Shown here: piece after piece, positions 7,160-29,809 of the stretch
Layout of the letters: every line of letters starts with the position of its first letter
How positions within the stretch are numbered: the stretch's first letter is position 1
Assembly (NCBI RefSeq): GCF_003334405.1
Contig: NZ_QOWM01000018.1
Direction: 5' to 3' (one strand)
DNA from: Escherichia coli
GTDB taxonomy: Bacteria > Pseudomonadota > Gammaproteobacteria > Enterobacterales > Enterobacteriaceae
DNA: 64,000 nucleotides
Made by a program: the position numbers and the translations under genes
The notes under the pieces: generated by a model
Database searches by the model: none
What the model saw: only the letters and a program-made list of their open reading frames with translations
Told to the model about the DNA's origin: nothing

Positions 7160-8304
7160 ATACTCCTGATGAGTTTGGTCTTTTTCCGTTTCAGCGTTTC
7201 ACTGCAGATGAACTACGGCATTTCTTTGTCTGGTGTGCCGCACATAAAGTCAGTGATGTGGATCTGACCGGTGGGTCGCCCGTATCTGTCAGTCGCTTTG
7301 GCCGACGGGTGCGTTGTTCCAGTGCAACGTTACCAACCACACTCATGTCCTCCCTGATTGATGAACTGTTCGGTCGGGAAGTCATTCCCCGCGTTCTGGC
7401 AGGCAATCCGGTTGACAGGACGATACAGATTAACGGGGATGCATCCGGGCGCTATGGTCTTAAACGCGGAGAACGCATCCGGTTACGCTCTCACCTCATT
7501 CAGGGCACATCTGGTGCGGAGGAGAAAGCAATCTCAATAACCATGCGTGTCATCCCGACAGAAATACCGGACATTCTCTCCATGAATATTGAACCAGACC
7601 TGCTTGAAGCAATGGTCTGCAAAAGCGGTCTGGGATTTGTATGTGGTGAAACCGGGTCAGGAAAATCAACGCTGTGTTCAGCACTGTACCGTTACATTAT
7701 GGACAATTTCCCCGACGCCAAAATCGTGACATATGAAGACCCGGTGGAATATATCCTGGGAAATGAAAACGATCTGCTCCCACCGCATCAGGCAGAAATC
7801 GGGCGTGATGTGGTCAGTTTTGCTGCCGGACTGCGTTCTGCTGTACGACGTAATCCCGAAATTATCGGTGTTGGTGAGATCAGGGATAACGAAACCGCCG
7901 ACGCAGCGGTACAGGCAGGCAACACCGGGCATTACTGCCTGAGCACCATGCATACGAAATCTCCTGGTGAAACGCTGGCACGTCTTCTTGGGCTGTTTCC
8001 CCCTGTCATCAGGGATTCGATGGCCTGGGCTGTCCTGTCACTGTTGCAGTTCATTCTGGTTCAGGTTCTGGTCAGAACAAATGACGGTGGTCGTAAAGCC
8101 GTCCGGGAATATATCGTCATTAACGATGAGCTTCGCGACAATCTTTCCGGAATGCCACATGCAGAGTGGGGGCATCACATTGATGCCATAATCCGGCAGG
8201 AGAAGCGCCGTATCCGGGACCAGATTCTGGAAATGTATATCCGGAATGAAGTTGACCGAAGAGAAGCGATTCTTTTTATCCCACCAGGGGAGTTACGGTC
8301 ATGA
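7156..8304 (+). CDS. traJ: type IV secretion ATPase (PilT/DotB-like)
   Basis: Walker A GETGSGKST; overlapping start with traI. Confidence 0.7.
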   Translation: MNTPDEFGLFPFQRFTADELRHFFVWCAAHKVSDVDLTGGSPVSVSRFGRRVRCSSATLPTTLMSSLIDELFGREVIPRVLAGNPVDRTIQINGDASGRYGLKRGERIRLRSHLIQGTSGAEEKAISITMRVIPTEIPDILSMNIEPDLLEAMVCKSGLGFVCGETGSGKSTLCSALYRYIMDNFPDAKIVTYEDPVEYILGNENDLLPPHQAEIGRDVVSFAAGLRSAVRRNPEIIGVGEIRDNETADAAVQAGNTGHYCLSTMHTKSPGETLARLLGLFPPVIRDSMAWAVLSLLQFILVQVLVRTNDGGRKAVREYIVINDELRDNLSGMPHAEWGHHIDAIIRQEKRRIRDQILEMYIRNEVDRREAILFIPPGELRS

Positions 8305-8591
8305 AAAGAGAAGGTTTCTGGCGATATGCAACACCGCCAGTCAACATCCAGGGCGTACCTCTGCCGTTCACCATGATTTATCTGTTTATATGCCCCTTTC
8401 CCTCCAAAACAACCTTCTGGATTTGCACCGGCATCATTTTATTTTTCGTTATTCTCGACCGTTCAGGCTGGACTGTCAGGACTATCTGTACACGCATTTT
8501 CAGCATTCTGAGAGGGGCCATCGCCTCCGGTCGTCCATGGTGGTATCGCCACCATACGGAATCACCACGAGACTGGACTGGCCTCGATTAA
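8301..8591 (+). CDS. traK: small integral membrane transfer protein (IcmT-like size)
   Basis: 96 aa, two hydrophobic helices; name by position. Confidence 0.55.
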   Translation: MKREGFWRYATPPVNIQGVPLPFTMIYLFICPFPSKTTFWICTGIILFFVILDRSGWTVRTICTRIFSILRGAIASGRPWWYRHHTESPRDWTGLD

Positions 8592-8605
8592 ATTCTGGAG
8601 TCTTT

Positions 8606-9157
8606 ATGTCAGGTAAAAAAACTATCGTTACTCTGCTCCGGGTATCGCTACTGGCATGCCCGTTACTGTTCACGACACCATCGTTTGCAATGATCGACAC
8701 GCCATCCGTGAAGGTCGGCTTTTCTCCTGAAGGAAGCGCATCCGCTCTGGTGCTTGACACAATCAACAGTGCGGAAAGCTCCATCAGGATGATGGCATAT
8801 TCCTTCACCGACCCGGATGTAATGCATGCGCTGGCAAAAGCGAAAAAACGCGGAGTGGACGTCCGTATTGTTGTTGATGACAAGGGGAATACGAACCGGG
8901 CAAGTCAGGAAGCGATGAAATATATCAACCTGCTGGACATTCCTCTGCGGACTGTAGATGCCTTCCCCATCCATCACGACAAAGTCATCATTGTTGACGG
9001 AAACACGGTTGAAACCGGCTCCTATAACTTCTCTCGTGCTGCTGCACGCAAGAATTCAGAGAATGTCGTTGTGCTCAAGAATATGCCGGATGTAGCCGCA
9101 CAATATCTTGAACACTGGCAGGATCGCTGGAATAAGGGTACAGACTGGAGACCCTGA
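8606..9157 (+). CDS. nuc: periplasmic endonuclease, phospholipase D/Nuc family
   Basis: signal peptide plus HxK(x)4D motif HHDKVIIVDGNTVETGSYN; RBS before ATG 8606. Confidence 0.75.
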   Translation: MSGKKTIVTLLRVSLLACPLLFTTPSFAMIDTPSVKVGFSPEGSASALVLDTINSAESSIRMMAYSFTDPDVMHALAKAKKRGVDVRIVVDDKGNTNRASQEAMKYINLLDIPLRTVDAFPIHHDKVIIVDGNTVETGSYNFSRAAARKNSENVVVLKNMPDVAAQYLEHWQDRWNKGTDWRP

Positions 9158-9191
9158 CAAACATTTCTCCCCCGGTTTTCTATCCCCCCAG

Positions 9192-9221
9192 CCACCCCCG
9201 GCTTCCGGCGGTGGTTTTTTT
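9192..9221 (+). terminator. rho-independent terminator after nuc
   Basis: CCACC..CCGG..CCGG..GGTGG hairpin followed by TTTTTTT. Confidence 0.55.
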
Positions 9222-9246
9222 CCGTCTTTTTTCAGGAGAAGCACTC

Positions 9247-12200
9247 ATGCCGTCTGTATCCCGCTACCGCACCTGGCTTGCCGTGCCTGCAGATGAAATA
9301 GAAGATCTCAAAAAAGCACATCCCCCGATGAACGGGCACACGCCCGTCATCTGGGACAAGGAGCACAAACTCTGGTTCGCCCGCCCGGGGGCAGACCTGT
9401 CCAGGCTGGACCGCTGGCTGCCCCGGCCACAGGACGTCTCCATGAACGGCAGTGATCCGGTCACCGAGTTTGCCCAGGTTCTGGAGAATGCCGGACTGGT
9501 TCTGAAAGAACTGCCGGTCATGGACGGGAAAATCCACCGTGTCCCGACCGCCGATGACAAAAAAGGACAAAAAAGTGGCGCATATCGCGGCTTCCTGGAC
9601 GGCAGACCTGCCGGCTGGTACAGGGATTATCGCAGCGCGGATGATTCGCCGATCACCTGGACCTTCTCCGGCGGAGAACAGACAGATCCCCGCGCAAGAC
9701 TCCACCTGAAAGCGCATTCAATGCAACGCAGGGAGGACGCGGAGCGGGAACTGAAAGCACAGTACAACCGACAGGCCGCGTATGCCCGCCGCTATGTCAA
9801 CAAATGGCCGCAGGCCACAGCACATGAATACCTGACCCGGAAAGGCATTCAGGCTGCACCGGGGGTGCGGGTAAACAACAAAAATGAACTGGTTATTCCC
9901 TTCAGTAACCGTAACGGCGCGATACGCTCTTACCAGCGTATTCCGGTCACCGGGGGGAAAGATGCCCGCATCCTGATAGATTCGGAGAAAACCGGTAACT
10001 GGTTTGCGCTGGGCACACCGCGCAACGGTCAGCCGGTACTGTTTGCCGAGGGCTATGCCACTGCGGCCTCCCTGCACGAAGCCACGGGCCTTCCGGTACT
10101 GATGACGGTGGATGGAGGCAACATGATTGCCGTTGCCGAAAATGCCCGGCAAAAGTGGACGCAAAGCCCCTTTATCTTCTGTGCCGACAACGATCATGCA
10201 ATCCGGGTTAACAAAGGTATCGTCAGTGCAACAAAAGCCGCAGAACTGACAGGAGGAACGGTCATCTTTCCTGCGTTCACCGATGCCGAAAAAGCGCAGG
10301 GACTGACCGATTTCAATGACCTGGACGCCAGCCGGGGACGGGCCGCTTTTCAGCATGTCATCAACGCCCAGTTAGAACATATCGGGGTTTCCACCCCCAA
10401 CAGTAACACCCCGGAAATCCGGGAGGCACTGGTGATCGGCAACCTCGTTTTTACACCGGTCCACACTGAGGAAAAAACCATGACTCCGACAGAATATCCT
10501 GAAACATCACCCGATACAGGGCACAGCCATGACCAGGGACCTTCTCTGCCGTCCGCCACGCAGCAGGAACAACCAGCTGCTTCCAGCAGTAACATTGCTG
10601 ATGAAACACAGTCATTTACCAGTCACGCCACTGAAAATAACGGCAAAGATGAGCGGCACGCTGATAACGTTCAGGCGCAAACGGAAAGCTCTGTAGTTCA
10701 GGACTCCCCTGCAGAATCACCGGCGTCCCCGGAAAGTACAACGGCGTCTGCCCCTGATGAACCCGCTCATCCGGCGGAACCTCCGGAAAAAGTTGTCTCG
10801 GTGGCCACAGATAAAGACTGGCGTGAATTTGAAGCCGAACTGTCACAACCGGAAAAAAACGAGTCACAACAGGAATCCGGCACTTCACCTGAAATACCGG
10901 CCCCTGCTGCCGCCCCCGCATCCCCTGAAGACAGTCCCTCATCTGAAACCATGAATGAATCAGCCGAGCCATCACCTTCCCCTGATGCAGTCAAAGAGGA
11001 AATGACCGTGATGACGGAGCCTGATGACAAACAAAGCACCGGAATATCCCCGGATACTCCCCGGGAAGAGGCGGTCAGCCATGTAACTGAAGACATTCCC
11101 CTTCAGCCAGAACCGTTCCTTCCTGAGTCAGATGGCCCTGAAGAATACGAAGACTACAGCGCATATCAGGAGCTGATGAACAATGAAAATCCTGAGCATC
11201 TGCAGGAAAACAGTGATATGCCGTCGCAACCGGACACAGGCCACGTTCAGGCAGATGAGTCAGAACTTCAGACCACAACAGATACTGCAGAACCGGCTGT
11301 CCGGGATGAACCCACTCCGCAGCAACCTGTTCAGAGCACATCACCTTCTGATAATACTTCTTCGTTTCTCGACAAAGCGCGTGGCCTTTTTACGCGTAAA
11401 AAAACGGATTCACAGGCGCATGAGAACAGTGATCCCACGCCCTCACAGGAAACCACGACGACCACACCGACACCTGACAGTATTGTCTACGCCCCGGAAC
11501 GTTCTGATGCACAGATATCGCTCAACATAGACGAAATTCTTAAAGAGCTTGACTGGGAAAAACGAGCAGACAGAACCGTCCTGTACAAACTGGATGGCAA
11601 ACCTGCCTTCATTGACCGGGTAAACCGGCTGGAAATGGTCAACGGTGCCAGCAATGACGATCGCAGCGTTCTGGCCGCACTTGCTGTGGCCACCAAATTT
11701 TATGGGGGCGTCATAGAGCTGACGGGCAGTGATGCCTTTAAGCAAAAAGCAATGCAGTTGATTATCGAGCACAACATCGATGTCCGGATGAAATTGCCAG
11801 ATCAACGGGCTGAACTAGAAAAATTACGCAAGGAAATGGCTGTCAGTAAGGATGCTGTTGTCACCCATCAGCCAACACCGGAACTTAACCGGAATATCCC
11901 TGAACAACCGGCTGTCCCTGACCCCGTTCAGGAAAAAGAAGCCACACAATCCCCGGCGTCCCCTGCTGCCCCTGAAGCATCAACCGTCAGCACCGCTCCT
12001 GCATCATCACCGGCTGAACCAGGCAAAACGGCAGATGCAGCACCAGGTGAAGAACCTCCAGGAAAACTTCGCCCGGGAGAGAGCGTGACTGCCGTACTGC
12101 ACAATTTTGGTCGTGCTGAATATGCACCCGGCAAAGGAGAAAGTTTCTTTGTTGAGCTTAAAAACCGCAGTGGCAGCAAACTCTACTGGGGGGAACAACT

Positions 12201-13014
12201 GGAAAGTCTGGTCAAAAACCATCAGAAAGGTGACGTGGTGACACTGACACTTCAGAACCGCGAACAATTCATCCTCCCGGGAGAGCAAAAAGCACGTTTC
12301 CGGAATAAGTGGTCCATGGAGTCAGTTACCAACGGGATCTCGGTATCACATGATAATCCGGATAAAGGTCAGCGTATTCAGGCGATTCCGGTCGAAACCT
12401 TTATGAAAGTGGCTGCGCAAATCAGCCAGGGATGGCCGGAAGAGATGAAAGCGTTACGTATGCCAGAAAACGTCGGCTCACATCTGTTTATCGGTGAAGA
12501 CCGACATCCGGTCTCCGCGCCACAGAACGCGAATCAGGTAACAGAAATAACCAGTGCAGCCCCTGACAAGCTGACACCTGTTCTGGGATCAGTGGATAAG
12601 GATACGCGTGAACTCAACCTGTTACTTGTCCAGAGTGCCGATGAACATCTGCAGGGTGTGGTCCGGCTGAACGGCACATTGTATCCGGCACTGGCCACCC
12701 CATCGGCCGACAACAGTCAGCTGGTTATCAATGCGCTGACCGACAAAGGTTTACGCTTTGCAGGTTATGGTGAAGCGGTAAACCACGATGCTGACAGCAC
12801 GAATCGCCCCGCACCGGAGCTTATGCAGTTTCATCTGAAAACCCGGGAAGAACCGCTTTTTGCTGCTGTCTACACGCCGGAAAAACAACCTGATGCGTTG
12901 TACCGGAACCTGGGCTTCGAGCAGACATGGCAGCAGTGGTCCAACAGCCAAAAGCCGGAGGACAGGCAGGAAAAAACTCTGCATCAGGATCTCTCCCACA
13001 GCCCCGGCCGATGA
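9247..13014 (+). CDS. sog: Sog DNA primase (large form)
   Basis: 1255 aa, N-terminus MPSVSRYRTWLAV, primase-like N-domain, ~550-aa acidic Pro/Glu/Ser/Thr-rich linker, AGGAG RBS. Confidence 0.8.
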   Translation: MPSVSRYRTWLAVPADEIEDLKKAHPPMNGHTPVIWDKEHKLWFARPGADLSRLDRWLPRPQDVSMNGSDPVTEFAQVLENAGLVLKELPVMDGKIHRVPTADDKKGQKSGAYRGFLDGRPAGWYRDYRSADDSPITWTFSGGEQTDPRARLHLKAHSMQRREDAERELKAQYNRQAAYARRYVNKWPQATAHEYLTRKGIQAAPGVRVNNKNELVIPFSNRNGAIRSYQRIPVTGGKDARILIDSEKTGNWFALGTPRNGQPVLFAEGYATAASLHEATGLPVLMTVDGGNMIAVAENARQKWTQSPFIFCADNDHAIRVNKGIVSATKAAELTGGTVIFPAFTDAEKAQGLTDFNDLDASRGRAAFQHVINAQLEHIGVSTPNSNTPEIREALVIGNLVFTPVHTEEKTMTPTEYPETSPDTGHSHDQGPSLPSATQQEQPAASSSNIADETQSFTSHATENNGKDERHADNVQAQTESSVVQDSPAESPASPESTTASAPDEPAHPAEPPEKVVSVATDKDWREFEAELSQPEKNESQQESGTSPEIPAPAAAPASPEDSPSSETMNESAEPSPSPDAVKEEMTVMTEPDDKQSTGISPDTPREEAVSHVTEDIPLQPEPFLPESDGPEEYEDYSAYQELMNNENPEHLQENSDMPSQPDTGHVQADESELQTTTDTAEPAVRDEPTPQQPVQSTSPSDNTSSFLDKARGLFTRKKTDSQAHENSDPTPSQETTTTTPTPDSIVYAPERSDAQISLNIDEILKELDWEKRADRTVLYKLDGKPAFIDRVNRLEMVNGASNDDRSVLAALAVATKFYGGVIELTGSDAFKQKAMQLIIEHNIDVRMKLPDQRAELEKLRKEMAVSKDAVVTHQPTPELNRNIPEQPAVPDPVQEKEATQSPASPAAPEASTVSTAPASSPAEPGKTADAAPGEEPPGKLRPGESVTAVLHNFGRAEYAPGKGESFFVELKNRSGSKLYWGEQLESLVKNHQKGDVVTLTLQNREQFILPGEQKARFRNKWSMESVTNGISVSHDNPDKGQRIQAIPVETFMKVAAQISQGWPEEMKALRMPENVGSHLFIGEDRHPVSAPQNANQVTEITSAAPDKLTPVLGSVDKDTRELNLLLVQSADEHLQGVVRLNGTLYPALATPSADNSQLVINALTDKGLRFAGYGEAVNHDADSTNRPAPELMQFHLKTREEPLFAAVYTPEKQPDALYRNLGFEQTWQQWSNSQKPEDRQEKTLHQDLSHSPGR

Positions 13015-13031
13015 GCCGGTAAGGAAGCCAT

Positions 13032-13379
13032 ATGAACATGCATAAGTCTCTGGTTGCCGTGCTCGGCCTTATCCTGATTTCATCCACGGCAAGTGCTGCA
13101 ACCTGTCGTGCGGGTAGCGCGGCACAGGCCGGTAGTAATACAGGATATGAGCGAGCACGTGCAGCTGCGGATGCATGGTCACAACGTGAAAACGATGTTT
13201 CCTCATCCCTGCAGTCCTGTCTGTCACGAATCAAAAAAATCAGCATAAACCTCCCCCAGTTCCCCAGCCTTGACGACATTCTGTCGCAGCTGGAAAACCA
13301 GGTCTGCGACGCGGTCGTGGACAAGGTGAATGAAAAGCTGCCGGGGAATATTGATCCCTGGAAGGACTACAACCTATGA
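13032..13379 (+). CDS. traL: conjugal transfer protein, secreted
   Basis: signal peptide; name by position after sog. Confidence 0.55.
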   Translation: MNMHKSLVAVLGLILISSTASAATCRAGSAAQAGSNTGYERARAAADAWSQRENDVSSSLQSCLSRIKKISINLPQFPSLDDILSQLENQVCDAVVDKVNEKLPGNIDPWKDYNL

Positions 13380-28802: not shown

Positions 28803-28889
28803 GTTAGTTGAAAAGAGATTACCTCCGGTCAGGGCCACCAACTCTGTAACGGAACAGTAAAAAAACCGACCTCACCAGTCGGTTTTTTT
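28803..28889 (+). ncRNA. candidate ~87-nt sRNA (promoter -35 TTGCTA 28768-28773, -10 TATTAT 28791-28796; intrinsic terminator 28859-28889)
   Basis: sigma70-like promoter with 17-bp spacing, perfect terminator hairpin CCGAC..GTCGG + T7; 5' end 16/16 identical to 28616-28631. Confidence 0.35.
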
Positions 28890-29042
28890 ACATCTGTTGT
28901 TTCTCAAAATCCGCCCGACATGCCCGTCACACCGGGGAAACTCATGCTCTGAATCAGAACCAACCATCTCAACTTTGCCGTCTCCTGAAAAAACTGGCAC
29001 ATTCAGTTCGATAACTACCCATAAATACAGAGAGAAAATCCG

Positions 29043-29365: not shown

Positions 29366-29521
29366 TTAACGTTTAACTTCGTAGGCTAACGTTGCCACAA
29401 GCACTGTGTTTCCCTGCTGGAGCCGGAGTCCGCAAAGCGAATCCCTCACCATCCAAACAAAACACAGAATCGTCACACAGATGACGATTAACATCATTAA
29501 AAACGTTCGCTGTGGCATCAT
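29366..29521 (-). CDS. pndA: Hok/Gef-family type I toxin PndA
   Basis: translated by hand: MMPQRTFLMMLIVICVTILCFVWMVRDSLCGLRLQQGNTVLVATLAYEVKR, GGAGG RBS; not in ORF track (under 60 aa); overlapped by longer pndC/mok-like frame 29373-29657. Confidence 0.8.
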   Translation of the reverse strand: MMPQRTFLMMLIVICVTILCFVWMVRDSLCGLRLQQGNTVLVATLAYEVKR

Positions 29522-29809
29522 AGCCCCTCCATTGCCTTACGGCGGTTATCGGGCTACTATAATGTTGTCTAGGCATTACAGTAGAGCCCTTGGTTGATTG
29601 ATAAAAAAATCTCCAGGGGCTTTCTGCTGTATACCGTCCACAAAACGCTTTCGGCATACAGCCTCAAGCGCCCGCAGCTATTCTAACGACTTTCGTATCT
29701 GCAACAATCCTTTTATCGCACGGCTAATTCCTCTGGTTAGCTCTTATCGCCTGCAAATAAATTTTTAACCTTTCCGTTTGATTTAAATTCCAGAAATGGA
29801 GACTTTGTC

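Follow-up and report, generated by a model that had tools for sequence, protein, structure and literature searches.

The primase Sog has been known for decades to be made as two in-frame products and to be transferred to the recipient, and its gene, sog, serves in the typing of IncI1 plasmids. Primase activity and the transfer of both polypeptides to the recipient have been reported for Sog of ColIb-P9 and R64 (cited in PMC6112013 and PMC7213743). The short form, SogS, has a published length of 844 residues (PMC6112013), and a sogS annotation taken from R64 is listed in a table for pESBL (PMC4288162); the RefSeq copy of R64 carries no separate sogS feature.

The DNA analyzed here is a 64,000-nucleotide stretch of Escherichia coli (NCBI RefSeq assembly GCF_003334405.1, contig NZ_QOWM01000018.1), hereafter the window; all coordinates are positions in it, and every feature placed below lies on its + strand. 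Judged by its sequence, the reading frame at 9247-13014 is sog, the DNA primase gene of an IncI1/I-gamma conjugative plasmid. It is 98.7% identical to R64 sog in nucleotides and 98.5% in amino acids, the two proteins are of equal length (1255 residues), and the window operon has the order nuc-sog-traL-DotI/IcmL-TraN found in R64 and in an I-gamma plasmid, with nuc (encoding a PLD nuclease) on one side of sog in the I-type transfer operon and traL/traM on the other. By the same kinship, Sog is a primase sent into the recipient by the I-type (Dot/Icm-like) conjugation system. The original prediction of an IncI Sog primase whose frame ends at 13014 was thus borne out; the ATG at 9247, which follows a Shine-Dalgarno sequence read as AGGAG (9234-9238) by 8 nt, yields a long form, SogL, of 1255 residues plus stop. 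At a coverage of at least 80%, 1318 plasmid records matched sog, and within IncI1 proper the protein is nearly always 1255 or 1254 residues long, a near-fixed length that points to a degree of constraint or merely to an ancestor shared not long ago. Sog and the acidic linkers described below are already known and are ordinary for the family.

A division of Sog into five parts was drawn from the AlphaFold2 (AF2) model and from composition. A DUF5710 domain at the N-terminus (residues 8-59, 9268-9423; Pfam PF18974, E 2e-8) precedes the primase domain (residues 66-395, 9442-10431; pLDDT mostly >90), inside which are found Toprim_3 (residues 266-365; Pfam, E 1.4e-4) and, in the translation, the motif EGYATA (residues 268-273, nt 10048-10065). 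Next comes L1, a disordered acidic segment delimited by pLDDT <50, composition and variable length (348 residues, 408-755, 10468-11511), followed by a folded LPD7 domain (residues 756-867, 11512-11847; pLDDT 81-97; Pfam PF18821, E 3.3e-13, with a profile match spanning residues 775-862). A second disordered segment, the Pro/Ala-rich L2 (71 residues, 868-938, 11848-12060; pLDDT <50 and composition), leads to a beta-rich, OB-fold-like C-terminal domain (residues 939-1235, 12061-12951) and to the conserved C-terminal tail KPEDRQEKTLHQDLSHSPGR (12952-13011), which is nearly invariant among IncI/K/B/O relatives and has low pLDDT over residues 1239-1252. The top fold matches of the C-terminal domain were OB-fold single-stranded DNA binders and, as modeled, the domain may be an OB-fold; a PDB sequence search with the whole Sog protein as query returned no match. 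NCBIfam yielded nothing beyond a sub-threshold match between the LPD7 region and the C-terminal end of MobP relaxases, which scored 21 bits where the cut-off is 250, and a literature search on LPD7 found nothing related.

The strong bias toward Pro, Glu, Ser, Thr, Ala and Asp that had been claimed for the linker was confirmed over residues 401-750, which consist of 13% P, 13% E, 13% S, 11% T, 9% A and 8% D and hold 73 D/E against 16 K/R, for a pI of 4.05. Both linkers show low-complexity composition, are depleted of hydrophobic residues and are classed as disordered on the Uversky charge-hydropathy plot; in the AF2 model, pLDDT falls below 50 at 408-755 and 868-938 and exceeds 90 in the neighboring domains. 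The idea of a flexible linker therefore survived the proposed check by disorder prediction, the predicted model being unstructured in L1 and L2. The bias does not, however, run through a single linker from residue 400 to 950, since the LPD7 fold separates L1 from L2; nor is the linker DNA GC-rich, with GC fractions of 0.53 in L1 and 0.57 in L2 against 0.58 in the primase domain (0.51 for the whole window). As to the repeated PE/SP motifs also proposed, SP and PE, together with PA, are indeed the top dipeptides, but they exceed the composition-based expectation only slightly (z 1.9-2.9) and thus follow from composition. The dipeptide excess in L1 reached at most z 2.9, with one outlier in L2 (PG, z 4.0); a TRF tandem-repeat search found none in the linkers, and a direct-repeat search of the sog DNA returned short two-copy chance matches and no repeat family. 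Embedded in L1, a short, basic amphipathic helix with the sequence FLDKARGLFTRKK (residues 707-719, 11365-11403) was modeled by AF2 at a pLDDT of ~63, and its conservation among IncI/K/B/O relatives hints at a specific interaction.

Comparison with relatives showed that linker length is not invariant. Among 119 close homologues (IncI/K/B/O) whose domains are 60-100% identical, L1 measures 188-484 residues, and L2 measures 65-108 residues in relatives; among family representatives at no more than 50% identity, L1 ranges from 54 to 738 residues and its net charge is always negative (-9 to -64). The L1 of the window, counted as 356 residues in this comparison, ranks near the 70th percentile among the family representatives and is not the exceptionally long linker of the original prediction. 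Because L1 length varies in this manner across relatives, L1 and L2 read as flexible spacers of which the present copy is not exceptional. Natural variants exist in which L1 lacks residues 622-733 or 567-734 through in-frame deletion. For substitutions between IncI plasmids, dN/dS was 0.29-0.44 in L1, 0.13 in the N-terminal domain and 0.05 in the C-terminal domain, and amino acid differences from R64 amounted to 2.3% in L1, 8.5% in L2, 0.25% in the N-terminal domain and 0.6% in the C-terminal domain.

That Sog is made in long and short forms through an in-frame internal start, as had been proposed, is documented (PMC6112013). Since the published SogS is 844 residues long, we place its start at M412 (10480-10482), from which the frame runs to the stop (10480-13014; 844 residues, 92.3 kDa calculated). 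The assignment rests on this product length and on sequence conservation. A Shine-Dalgarno sequence, GAGGA (10468-10472), lies 7 nt before the ATG (8 nt for its GAGG core), the DNA around the start is identical in R64, and the ATG falls exactly where the primase domain meets L1. The aligned column holds Met in 29 of 45 homologues and Val in 8, the latter encoded by a GTG codon in pO104_H7, and in five of six distant homologous loci GAGG likewise precedes the aligned ATG by 8 nt. In alignment-free tests, the motif TDFND was followed by Met more often than expected (in 23 of 26 sequences, P 1.4e-4), and the pattern E-x3-M was likewise enriched (P 9e-7); a first test of this kind, anchored on the projected end of the primase domain, was weak (P 0.036) because that end is inaccurately projected in distant homologues. 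The possibility that the short form arises from an internal promoter found no support, no sigma-70-like site being present in 9000-13200. A search of the literature for apparent Sog sizes of 210 and 160 kDa returned nothing.

Two other in-frame starts were weighed against M412. The original prediction combined one continuous flexible linker of ~550 residues (400-950) with a short form that begins with MAVSKDAV, whose Met it placed at 11825-11827 as residue 860; the bases at that position are TAC, outside the sog frame, and the Met in question is M864 (11836-11838). Composition is indeed biased over much of 400-950, a Met is found near this position in IncI/K/B/O plasmids, and IncK and B/O loci have AAGGA or AGGAG at a workable spacing from it. 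Residues 756-867, however, form a confidently folded domain, and M864 belongs to its final helix; AAGGA lies just 1-2 nt from the ATG in both the window and R64, the Shine-Dalgarno duplex energy over the usual range of spacings is +0.2, and the product would be 392 residues (42.9 kDa) long rather than the published 844. We consider this reading hardly credible. Slightly better placed, although still very improbable, is the in-frame GTG at 10432 (V396), 16 codons before M412, which would give a product of 860 residues. Its Shine-Dalgarno sequence (GGGAGG, -10.3 kcal/mol, 6-nt spacer) is the strongest among the in-frame starts, surpassing that of M412, and the GTG codon is conserved in IncK and B/O loci. 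Against it stand the published length of SogS, the degradation of the Shine-Dalgarno sequence in IncK (GTGAGG) and its loss in B/O loci, and the absence of the whole segment 385-407 from most of the distant homologues, whereas the M412 column is retained. We regard it as next to excluded that some of the open reading frames overlapping the linkers in other frames are real genes. L1 is overlapped by eight such stretches, each open for 80 codons or more, but dN/dS is lowest in the sog frame (0.29-0.44, against 0.46-1.8 in the five other frames) and neither R64 nor other records annotate a gene there. The many spurious frames anticipated in this region do exist; their excess is modest, the depth per base of frames open for 80 codons or more being 2.7-2.9 in the linkers and 2.3 in the primase domain, against 2.1 window-wide.

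We thus favor, with a probability of about 0.85, a modular IncI1/I-gamma sog that comprises the primase, the disordered spacers L1 and L2, LPD7, the C-terminal domain and the tail, and from which SogL and SogS are made from starts at 9247 and 10480. One sog mRNA would be translated into SogL from the ATG at 9247 and into SogS from the ATG at 10480 with its own GAGGA. L1 and L2 would act as flexible, DNA-repelling spacers that let the primase head move freely and, because they are unfolded, could thread through the secretion channel at no cost; the LPD7 and C-terminal modules, common to SogL and SogS, would handle transport and contact with single-stranded DNA. The sequence and length of the spacers may drift freely as long as their acidic, proline-rich character is kept. 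The suggestion of a flexible tether for transfer through the type IV secretion system stands insofar as the segments are disordered and variable. A pure tether role is nonetheless insufficient, because SogS begins at the start of L1, which there forms an N-terminal tail. L1 may instead be active, either as an acidic tail that mimics DNA and either regulates the C-terminal domain or recruits partners, or as a lead for recognition or unfolding by the type IVB coupling complex. The internal start leaves the whole of L1 in SogS and its placement is conserved family-wide; L1 carries a net negative charge in all representatives examined, its dN/dS stays below 1, it embeds the conserved basic helix, and the C-terminal domain as modeled resembles single-stranded DNA-binding OB folds. 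Speaking against an active L1 are its more than ten-fold variation in length, a sequence that cannot be aligned beyond close relatives, and natural, potentially functional variants devoid of 112-168 residues of L1, basic helix included. On balance, we find an active L1 doubtful, though worth keeping in mind.

Taken alone, the finding is of little weight, and its value lies in a corrected, cleaner map of Sog, with two disordered segments flanking LPD7 and a short form that starts at M412 (10480) and not at M864. The internal ATG and its GAGG are conserved at the junction of primase and linker, distant relatives included. Because the internal start lies at this boundary, the acidic segment is always fully included in the short form, and it may accordingly be a functional module under selection, common to both products and present throughout the MPF_I primase family, rather than a mere tether. 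This proposal is tentative, and we think it rather improbable. If the segment is such a module, it could exert DNA-mimicking control over the OB-like C-terminal domain or act as a leading sequence that engages the type IVB secretion machine. The conserved start and the OB-like domain together provide a testable idea as to why the short form retains the whole acidic segment.

Among described systems, Sog of R64 and ColIb-P9 (IncI1) is the same gene, equal in length, likewise flanked by nuc and traL and with an identical DNA context at M412. Of the 19 substitutions that separate the window protein from R64 Sog, 14 fall within the two disordered segments, and the best plasmid matches of the window are typed as IncI-gamma/K1, not IncI1. 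The primases of IncK, IncB/O and IncZ plasmids, annotated as 'LPD7 domain-containing protein', share the architecture and gene order of Sog; their domains are 61-76% identical to those of Sog, and an ATG or GTG is present at the same primase/linker junction. Their L1 measures 229-484 residues and their L2 mostly 107 (65-108), and neither can be aligned with the Sog linkers, the short basic helix excepted. RP4 TraC (IncP) is likewise made in two in-frame forms and has the EGYATA motif. It is a plasmid Toprim primase that enters the recipient during conjugation (PMC7213743; PMC5512222) but, unlike Sog, has its Toprim domain at the C-terminal end and possesses a DUF1738 domain (PMC7213743). Pri of pCTX-M3 (IncL/M), a primase of an MPF_I-type transfer region that is 23-30% identical to SogL, has potential products of 1070 and, in frame, 689 residues, and its deletion impairs transfer far more severely than does the loss of sog from R64 (PMC6112013). 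The secretion system also sets TraC apart, being of the P type in RP4 and of the I type for Sog. A functional analogy, and nothing beyond it, is offered by E. coli SSB, T4 gp32 and T7 gp2.5, which join an OB-fold-like domain to an acidic disordered tail. Tails of the SSB type are short (tens of residues), C-terminal and end in a conserved tip, whereas L1 of Sog is ~350 residues long, internal in SogL or N-terminal in SogS, and without such a tip.

The open reading frame at 9247-13014 (+) is sog, as the original prediction had it: it was 98.7% identical in DNA and 98.5% identical in protein to sog of the IncI1 reference plasmid R64, with exactly equal length, and its gene neighbours, traH-traI-traJ-traK-nuc upstream and traL-traM(DotI/IcmL)-traN downstream, matched those annotated in R64 and an I-gamma plasmid. 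Both the gene and its dual products were already known. The ORF scan of the window placed the stop codon at 13012-14, and ATG 9247, with AGGAG 8 nt upstream, yields a 1255-aa protein; the mechanical ORF list begins sog at GTG 9211 instead. Also listed was a 303-aa ORF at 8246-9157 (+); in R64 and the I-gamma plasmid, nuc, which encodes a phospholipase D family nuclease, is annotated with a length of only 552 nt and matches the 3′ end of this ORF. The sog DNA found matches in 1840 plasmid records, a single match covering at least 80% of the query in 1318 of them (mostly 95-99% identity), and nearly all matching plasmids were conjugative, of MPF_I type, from Escherichia, Salmonella and Shigella. 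Elsewhere in the window, gathering-level Rfam matches to the sok antitoxin RNA (29516-29673 (-), 134 bits) and to an AgrB-like antisense RNA (28804-28891 (+), 58 bits) probably mark the pnd and dinQ-like type I toxin-antitoxin loci that the IncI1 backbone carries, and may be compared with the Hok/Gef and DqlB genes of R64.

Pfam assigned DUF5710 to residues 8-59, Toprim_3 to residues 266-365 and LPD7 to residues 775-862 of the long product, SogL. In an AlphaFold2 model of residues 56-1255, computed with 56 homologues in the input, per-residue confidence (pLDDT) was mostly above 90 for residues 66-395, 81-97 for the LPD7 domain (residues 756-867) and 85-96 for a beta-rich C-domain (residues 939-1235), with values below 50 for residues 408-755 (L1) and 868-938 (L2) and low values for residues 1239-1252. 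Composition agreed with this map: L1, counted over residues 401-750, contained 73 D/E versus 16 K/R (pI 4.05; P+E+S+T+A+D = 67%), L2 was 20% Pro and 16% Ala, and both fell on the disordered side of a charge-hydropathy plot, in contrast to the three folded parts. The long acidic low-complexity region predicted for Sog is thus real; as modeled, however, it is not one continuous linker over residues 400-950 but two disordered segments of 348 and 71 aa split by the folded, 112-aa LPD7 domain. The original prediction named the gene correctly and was right about the linker in general terms, but it overstated the linker's exceptionality and continuity, and its internal-start candidate was wrong in position, frame and biology.

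The C-domain (12061-12951), for which there is no Pfam family, was predicted to fold confidently into beta-rich subdomains (pLDDT 88.6 in a separate AlphaFold2 model of residues 939-1255). Its best structural matches were the OB-fold ssDNA-binding proteins LEF-3, SSB, PriB, RPA and POT1, all with weak scores, Foldseek returning POT1, RPA70 and SSB at E-values no better than 3e-3; this predicted resemblance is new in the present analysis. Three short elements were also observed. A basic amphipathic helix, FLDKARGLFTRKK (11365-11403, residues 707-719; pLDDT ~63), is the sole positively charged island in acidic L1; it is conserved as PSLFSRLRRFL in IncK/B/O relatives, has no counterpart in distant family members and is lost by deletion from two natural variants. 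It could represent a short linear interaction motif. Directly before LPD7 lies the motif D-[AGS]-I-x-[VIFY]-[GA]-P-x-R (11479-11505, residues 745-753; here DSIVYAPER), seen in many family representatives otherwise unalignable in that region. The last 20 residues, KPEDRQEKTLHQDLSHSPGR (12952-13011, residues 1236-1255), most of which (1239-1252) are predicted to be disordered, are almost invariant in IncI/K/B/O relatives, and we infer that they are a candidate signal for the Dot/Icm-like secretion system.

Among 119 close homologues with the three domains 60-100% identical, L1 measured 188-484 aa and L2 65-108 aa, and two IncI1-like proteins carried clean in-frame L1 deletions (residues 622-733 and 567-734). 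With residues 752-1255 as the query, 1.84 billion representative proteins yielded 279 relatives; in the ~40 with full primase-linker-LPD7 architecture, L1 spanned 54-738 aa, its net charge was always negative (-9 to -64) and its P/E/S/T/A/Q/D content was 53-81%. Contigs were traced for six family representatives, five of which had traL-like, DotI/IcmL or DotH/IcmK genes among the next downstream. At 356 aa, the linker ranks near the 70th percentile among family lengths and so is not exceptionally long. In IncI1 proper, the full-length sog matches listed were nearly all 3768 nt, a few being 3765 nt. The condition set in advance to refute the flexible spacer, a linker both invariant and structured, does not hold, as lengths vary and the model is unstructured; the idea survives. 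Sequence comparison shows faster evolution in the linkers than in the domains (dN/dS 0.29-0.44 in L1, 0.13 in the N-domain, 0.05 in the C-domain), and 14 of the 19 amino acid differences from R64 Sog fell within L1 or L2. Synonymous divergence was mosaic along sog against pRHB24-C12_2 and pEK204: dS from the former was highest in LPD7 (0.35), followed by the primase part (0.17), L1 (0.06) and the C-domain (0.03); from the latter, LPD7 showed no synonymous and two nonsynonymous differences. This pattern points to recombination breakpoints within sog, a matter of relevance to plasmid MLST, which uses sogS as a locus.

Other properties attributed to the linker were less distinctive. L1 (GC 0.53) and L2 (0.57) are not especially GC-rich next to the primase domain (0.58; whole window 0.51). 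Overlapping ORFs exist, as claimed, but run along the entire gene with only a modest excess, the depth of frames that stay open for 80 codons or more being 2.7-2.9x per base in the linkers, 2.3x in the primase domain and 2.1x in the window. Because dN/dS between IncI plasmids was lowest in the sog frame (0.29-0.44) and 0.46-1.8 in the five others, these ORFs were ruled out as genes and are by-products. Neither TRF nor a repeat finder detected a repeat family in sog, and SP, PE and PA dipeptides exceeded composition-preserving shuffles by just 1.9-2.9 sd; the reported PE/SP motifs reflect biased composition, not repetition.

That Sog is made in long and short forms from an in-frame internal start is documented: SogL (1255 aa) is accompanied by SogS (844 aa), produced by translational reinitiation in the sog frame (PMC6112013), and sogS, taken from R64, spans the last two-thirds of sogL in the pESBL re-annotation (PMC4288162). 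A product of 844 aa places the start at M412 (ATG 10480-10482), where GAGGA (10468-10472) puts a GAGG core 8 nt before the ATG, in a context identical to that of R64. In the 56-sequence family alignment, 45 sequences had a residue in the M412 column, 29 of them M and 8 V, and Glu stood four codons before it in 45 of 56. At nucleotide level, the aligned codon was ATG in an IncK2/Z plasmid and GTG in pO104_H7, and in five of six loci encoding proteins only ~30% identical an aligned ATG had GAGG exactly 8 nt upstream; given this fixed spacing in distant loci, the conserved Glu is best read as a nucleotide-level Shine-Dalgarno (SD) sequence. A Met lay 16-65 residues past the TDFND primase motif in 23 of 26 representatives (expected 53%; P 1.4e-4), and ten representatives showed E-x3-M (background 5.8%; P 9e-7). 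Judged from these alignments, the M412 start site is conserved well beyond IncI1. No sigma-70-like promoter was found inside sog, which fits two starts on a single mRNA.

The start had instead been placed at 11825-11827 (residue 860), where the bases are TAC and out of frame; the intended Met, of MAVSKDAV, is residue 864 (11836-11838). M864 was rejected as the SogS start: its product would be 392 aa (42.9 kDa), it falls within the last LPD7 helix of the AlphaFold2 model, and AAGGA stands only 1-2 nt before its ATG in the window and R64 alike. The SD at the equivalent site is better spaced in IncK/B-O relatives, so M864 could still conceivably begin a minor third product. The strongest SD in sog (GGGAGG, -10.3 kcal/mol, 6-nt spacer) precedes an in-frame GTG (10432-10434, V396) 16 codons upstream of the accepted start; however, the segment around V396 is missing in distant homologues, and IncK and B/O loci conserve the GTG but not the SD.

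As read from the sequence, the two nested products have L1, LPD7, L2 and the C-domain in common, with the primase only in SogL, and the linkers are acidic and length-variable, are predicted to be disordered and show weak purifying selection. Transport of both forms to the recipient in conjugation has been reported, and Sog proteins have been suggested to coat the transferred strand (PMC6112013); the I-type system delivers hundreds of copies of SogL to recipients independently of DNA (PMC8406263). L1 and L2 may act as flexible, DNA-repelling spacers that would give the primase head free reach along the incoming strand, with transport and ssDNA contact left to the C-terminal modules common to both products; being unfolded, the linkers would add no unfolding cost in secretion. 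In pESBL, transposon insertions across sogS scored 1.00 as 'required for transfer', whereas sogL as a whole had 0.26 of the score 'non-essential' (PMC4288162); these whole-gene scores, in which polar effects on downstream tra genes are possible, would fit a dispensable primase third. Finally, with its start at the head of L1, SogS carries that segment as an N-terminal tail, and the conserved placement of that start suggests some role for L1 itself, a doubtful proposal that draws on analogy with the acidic tails of SSB-type proteins.
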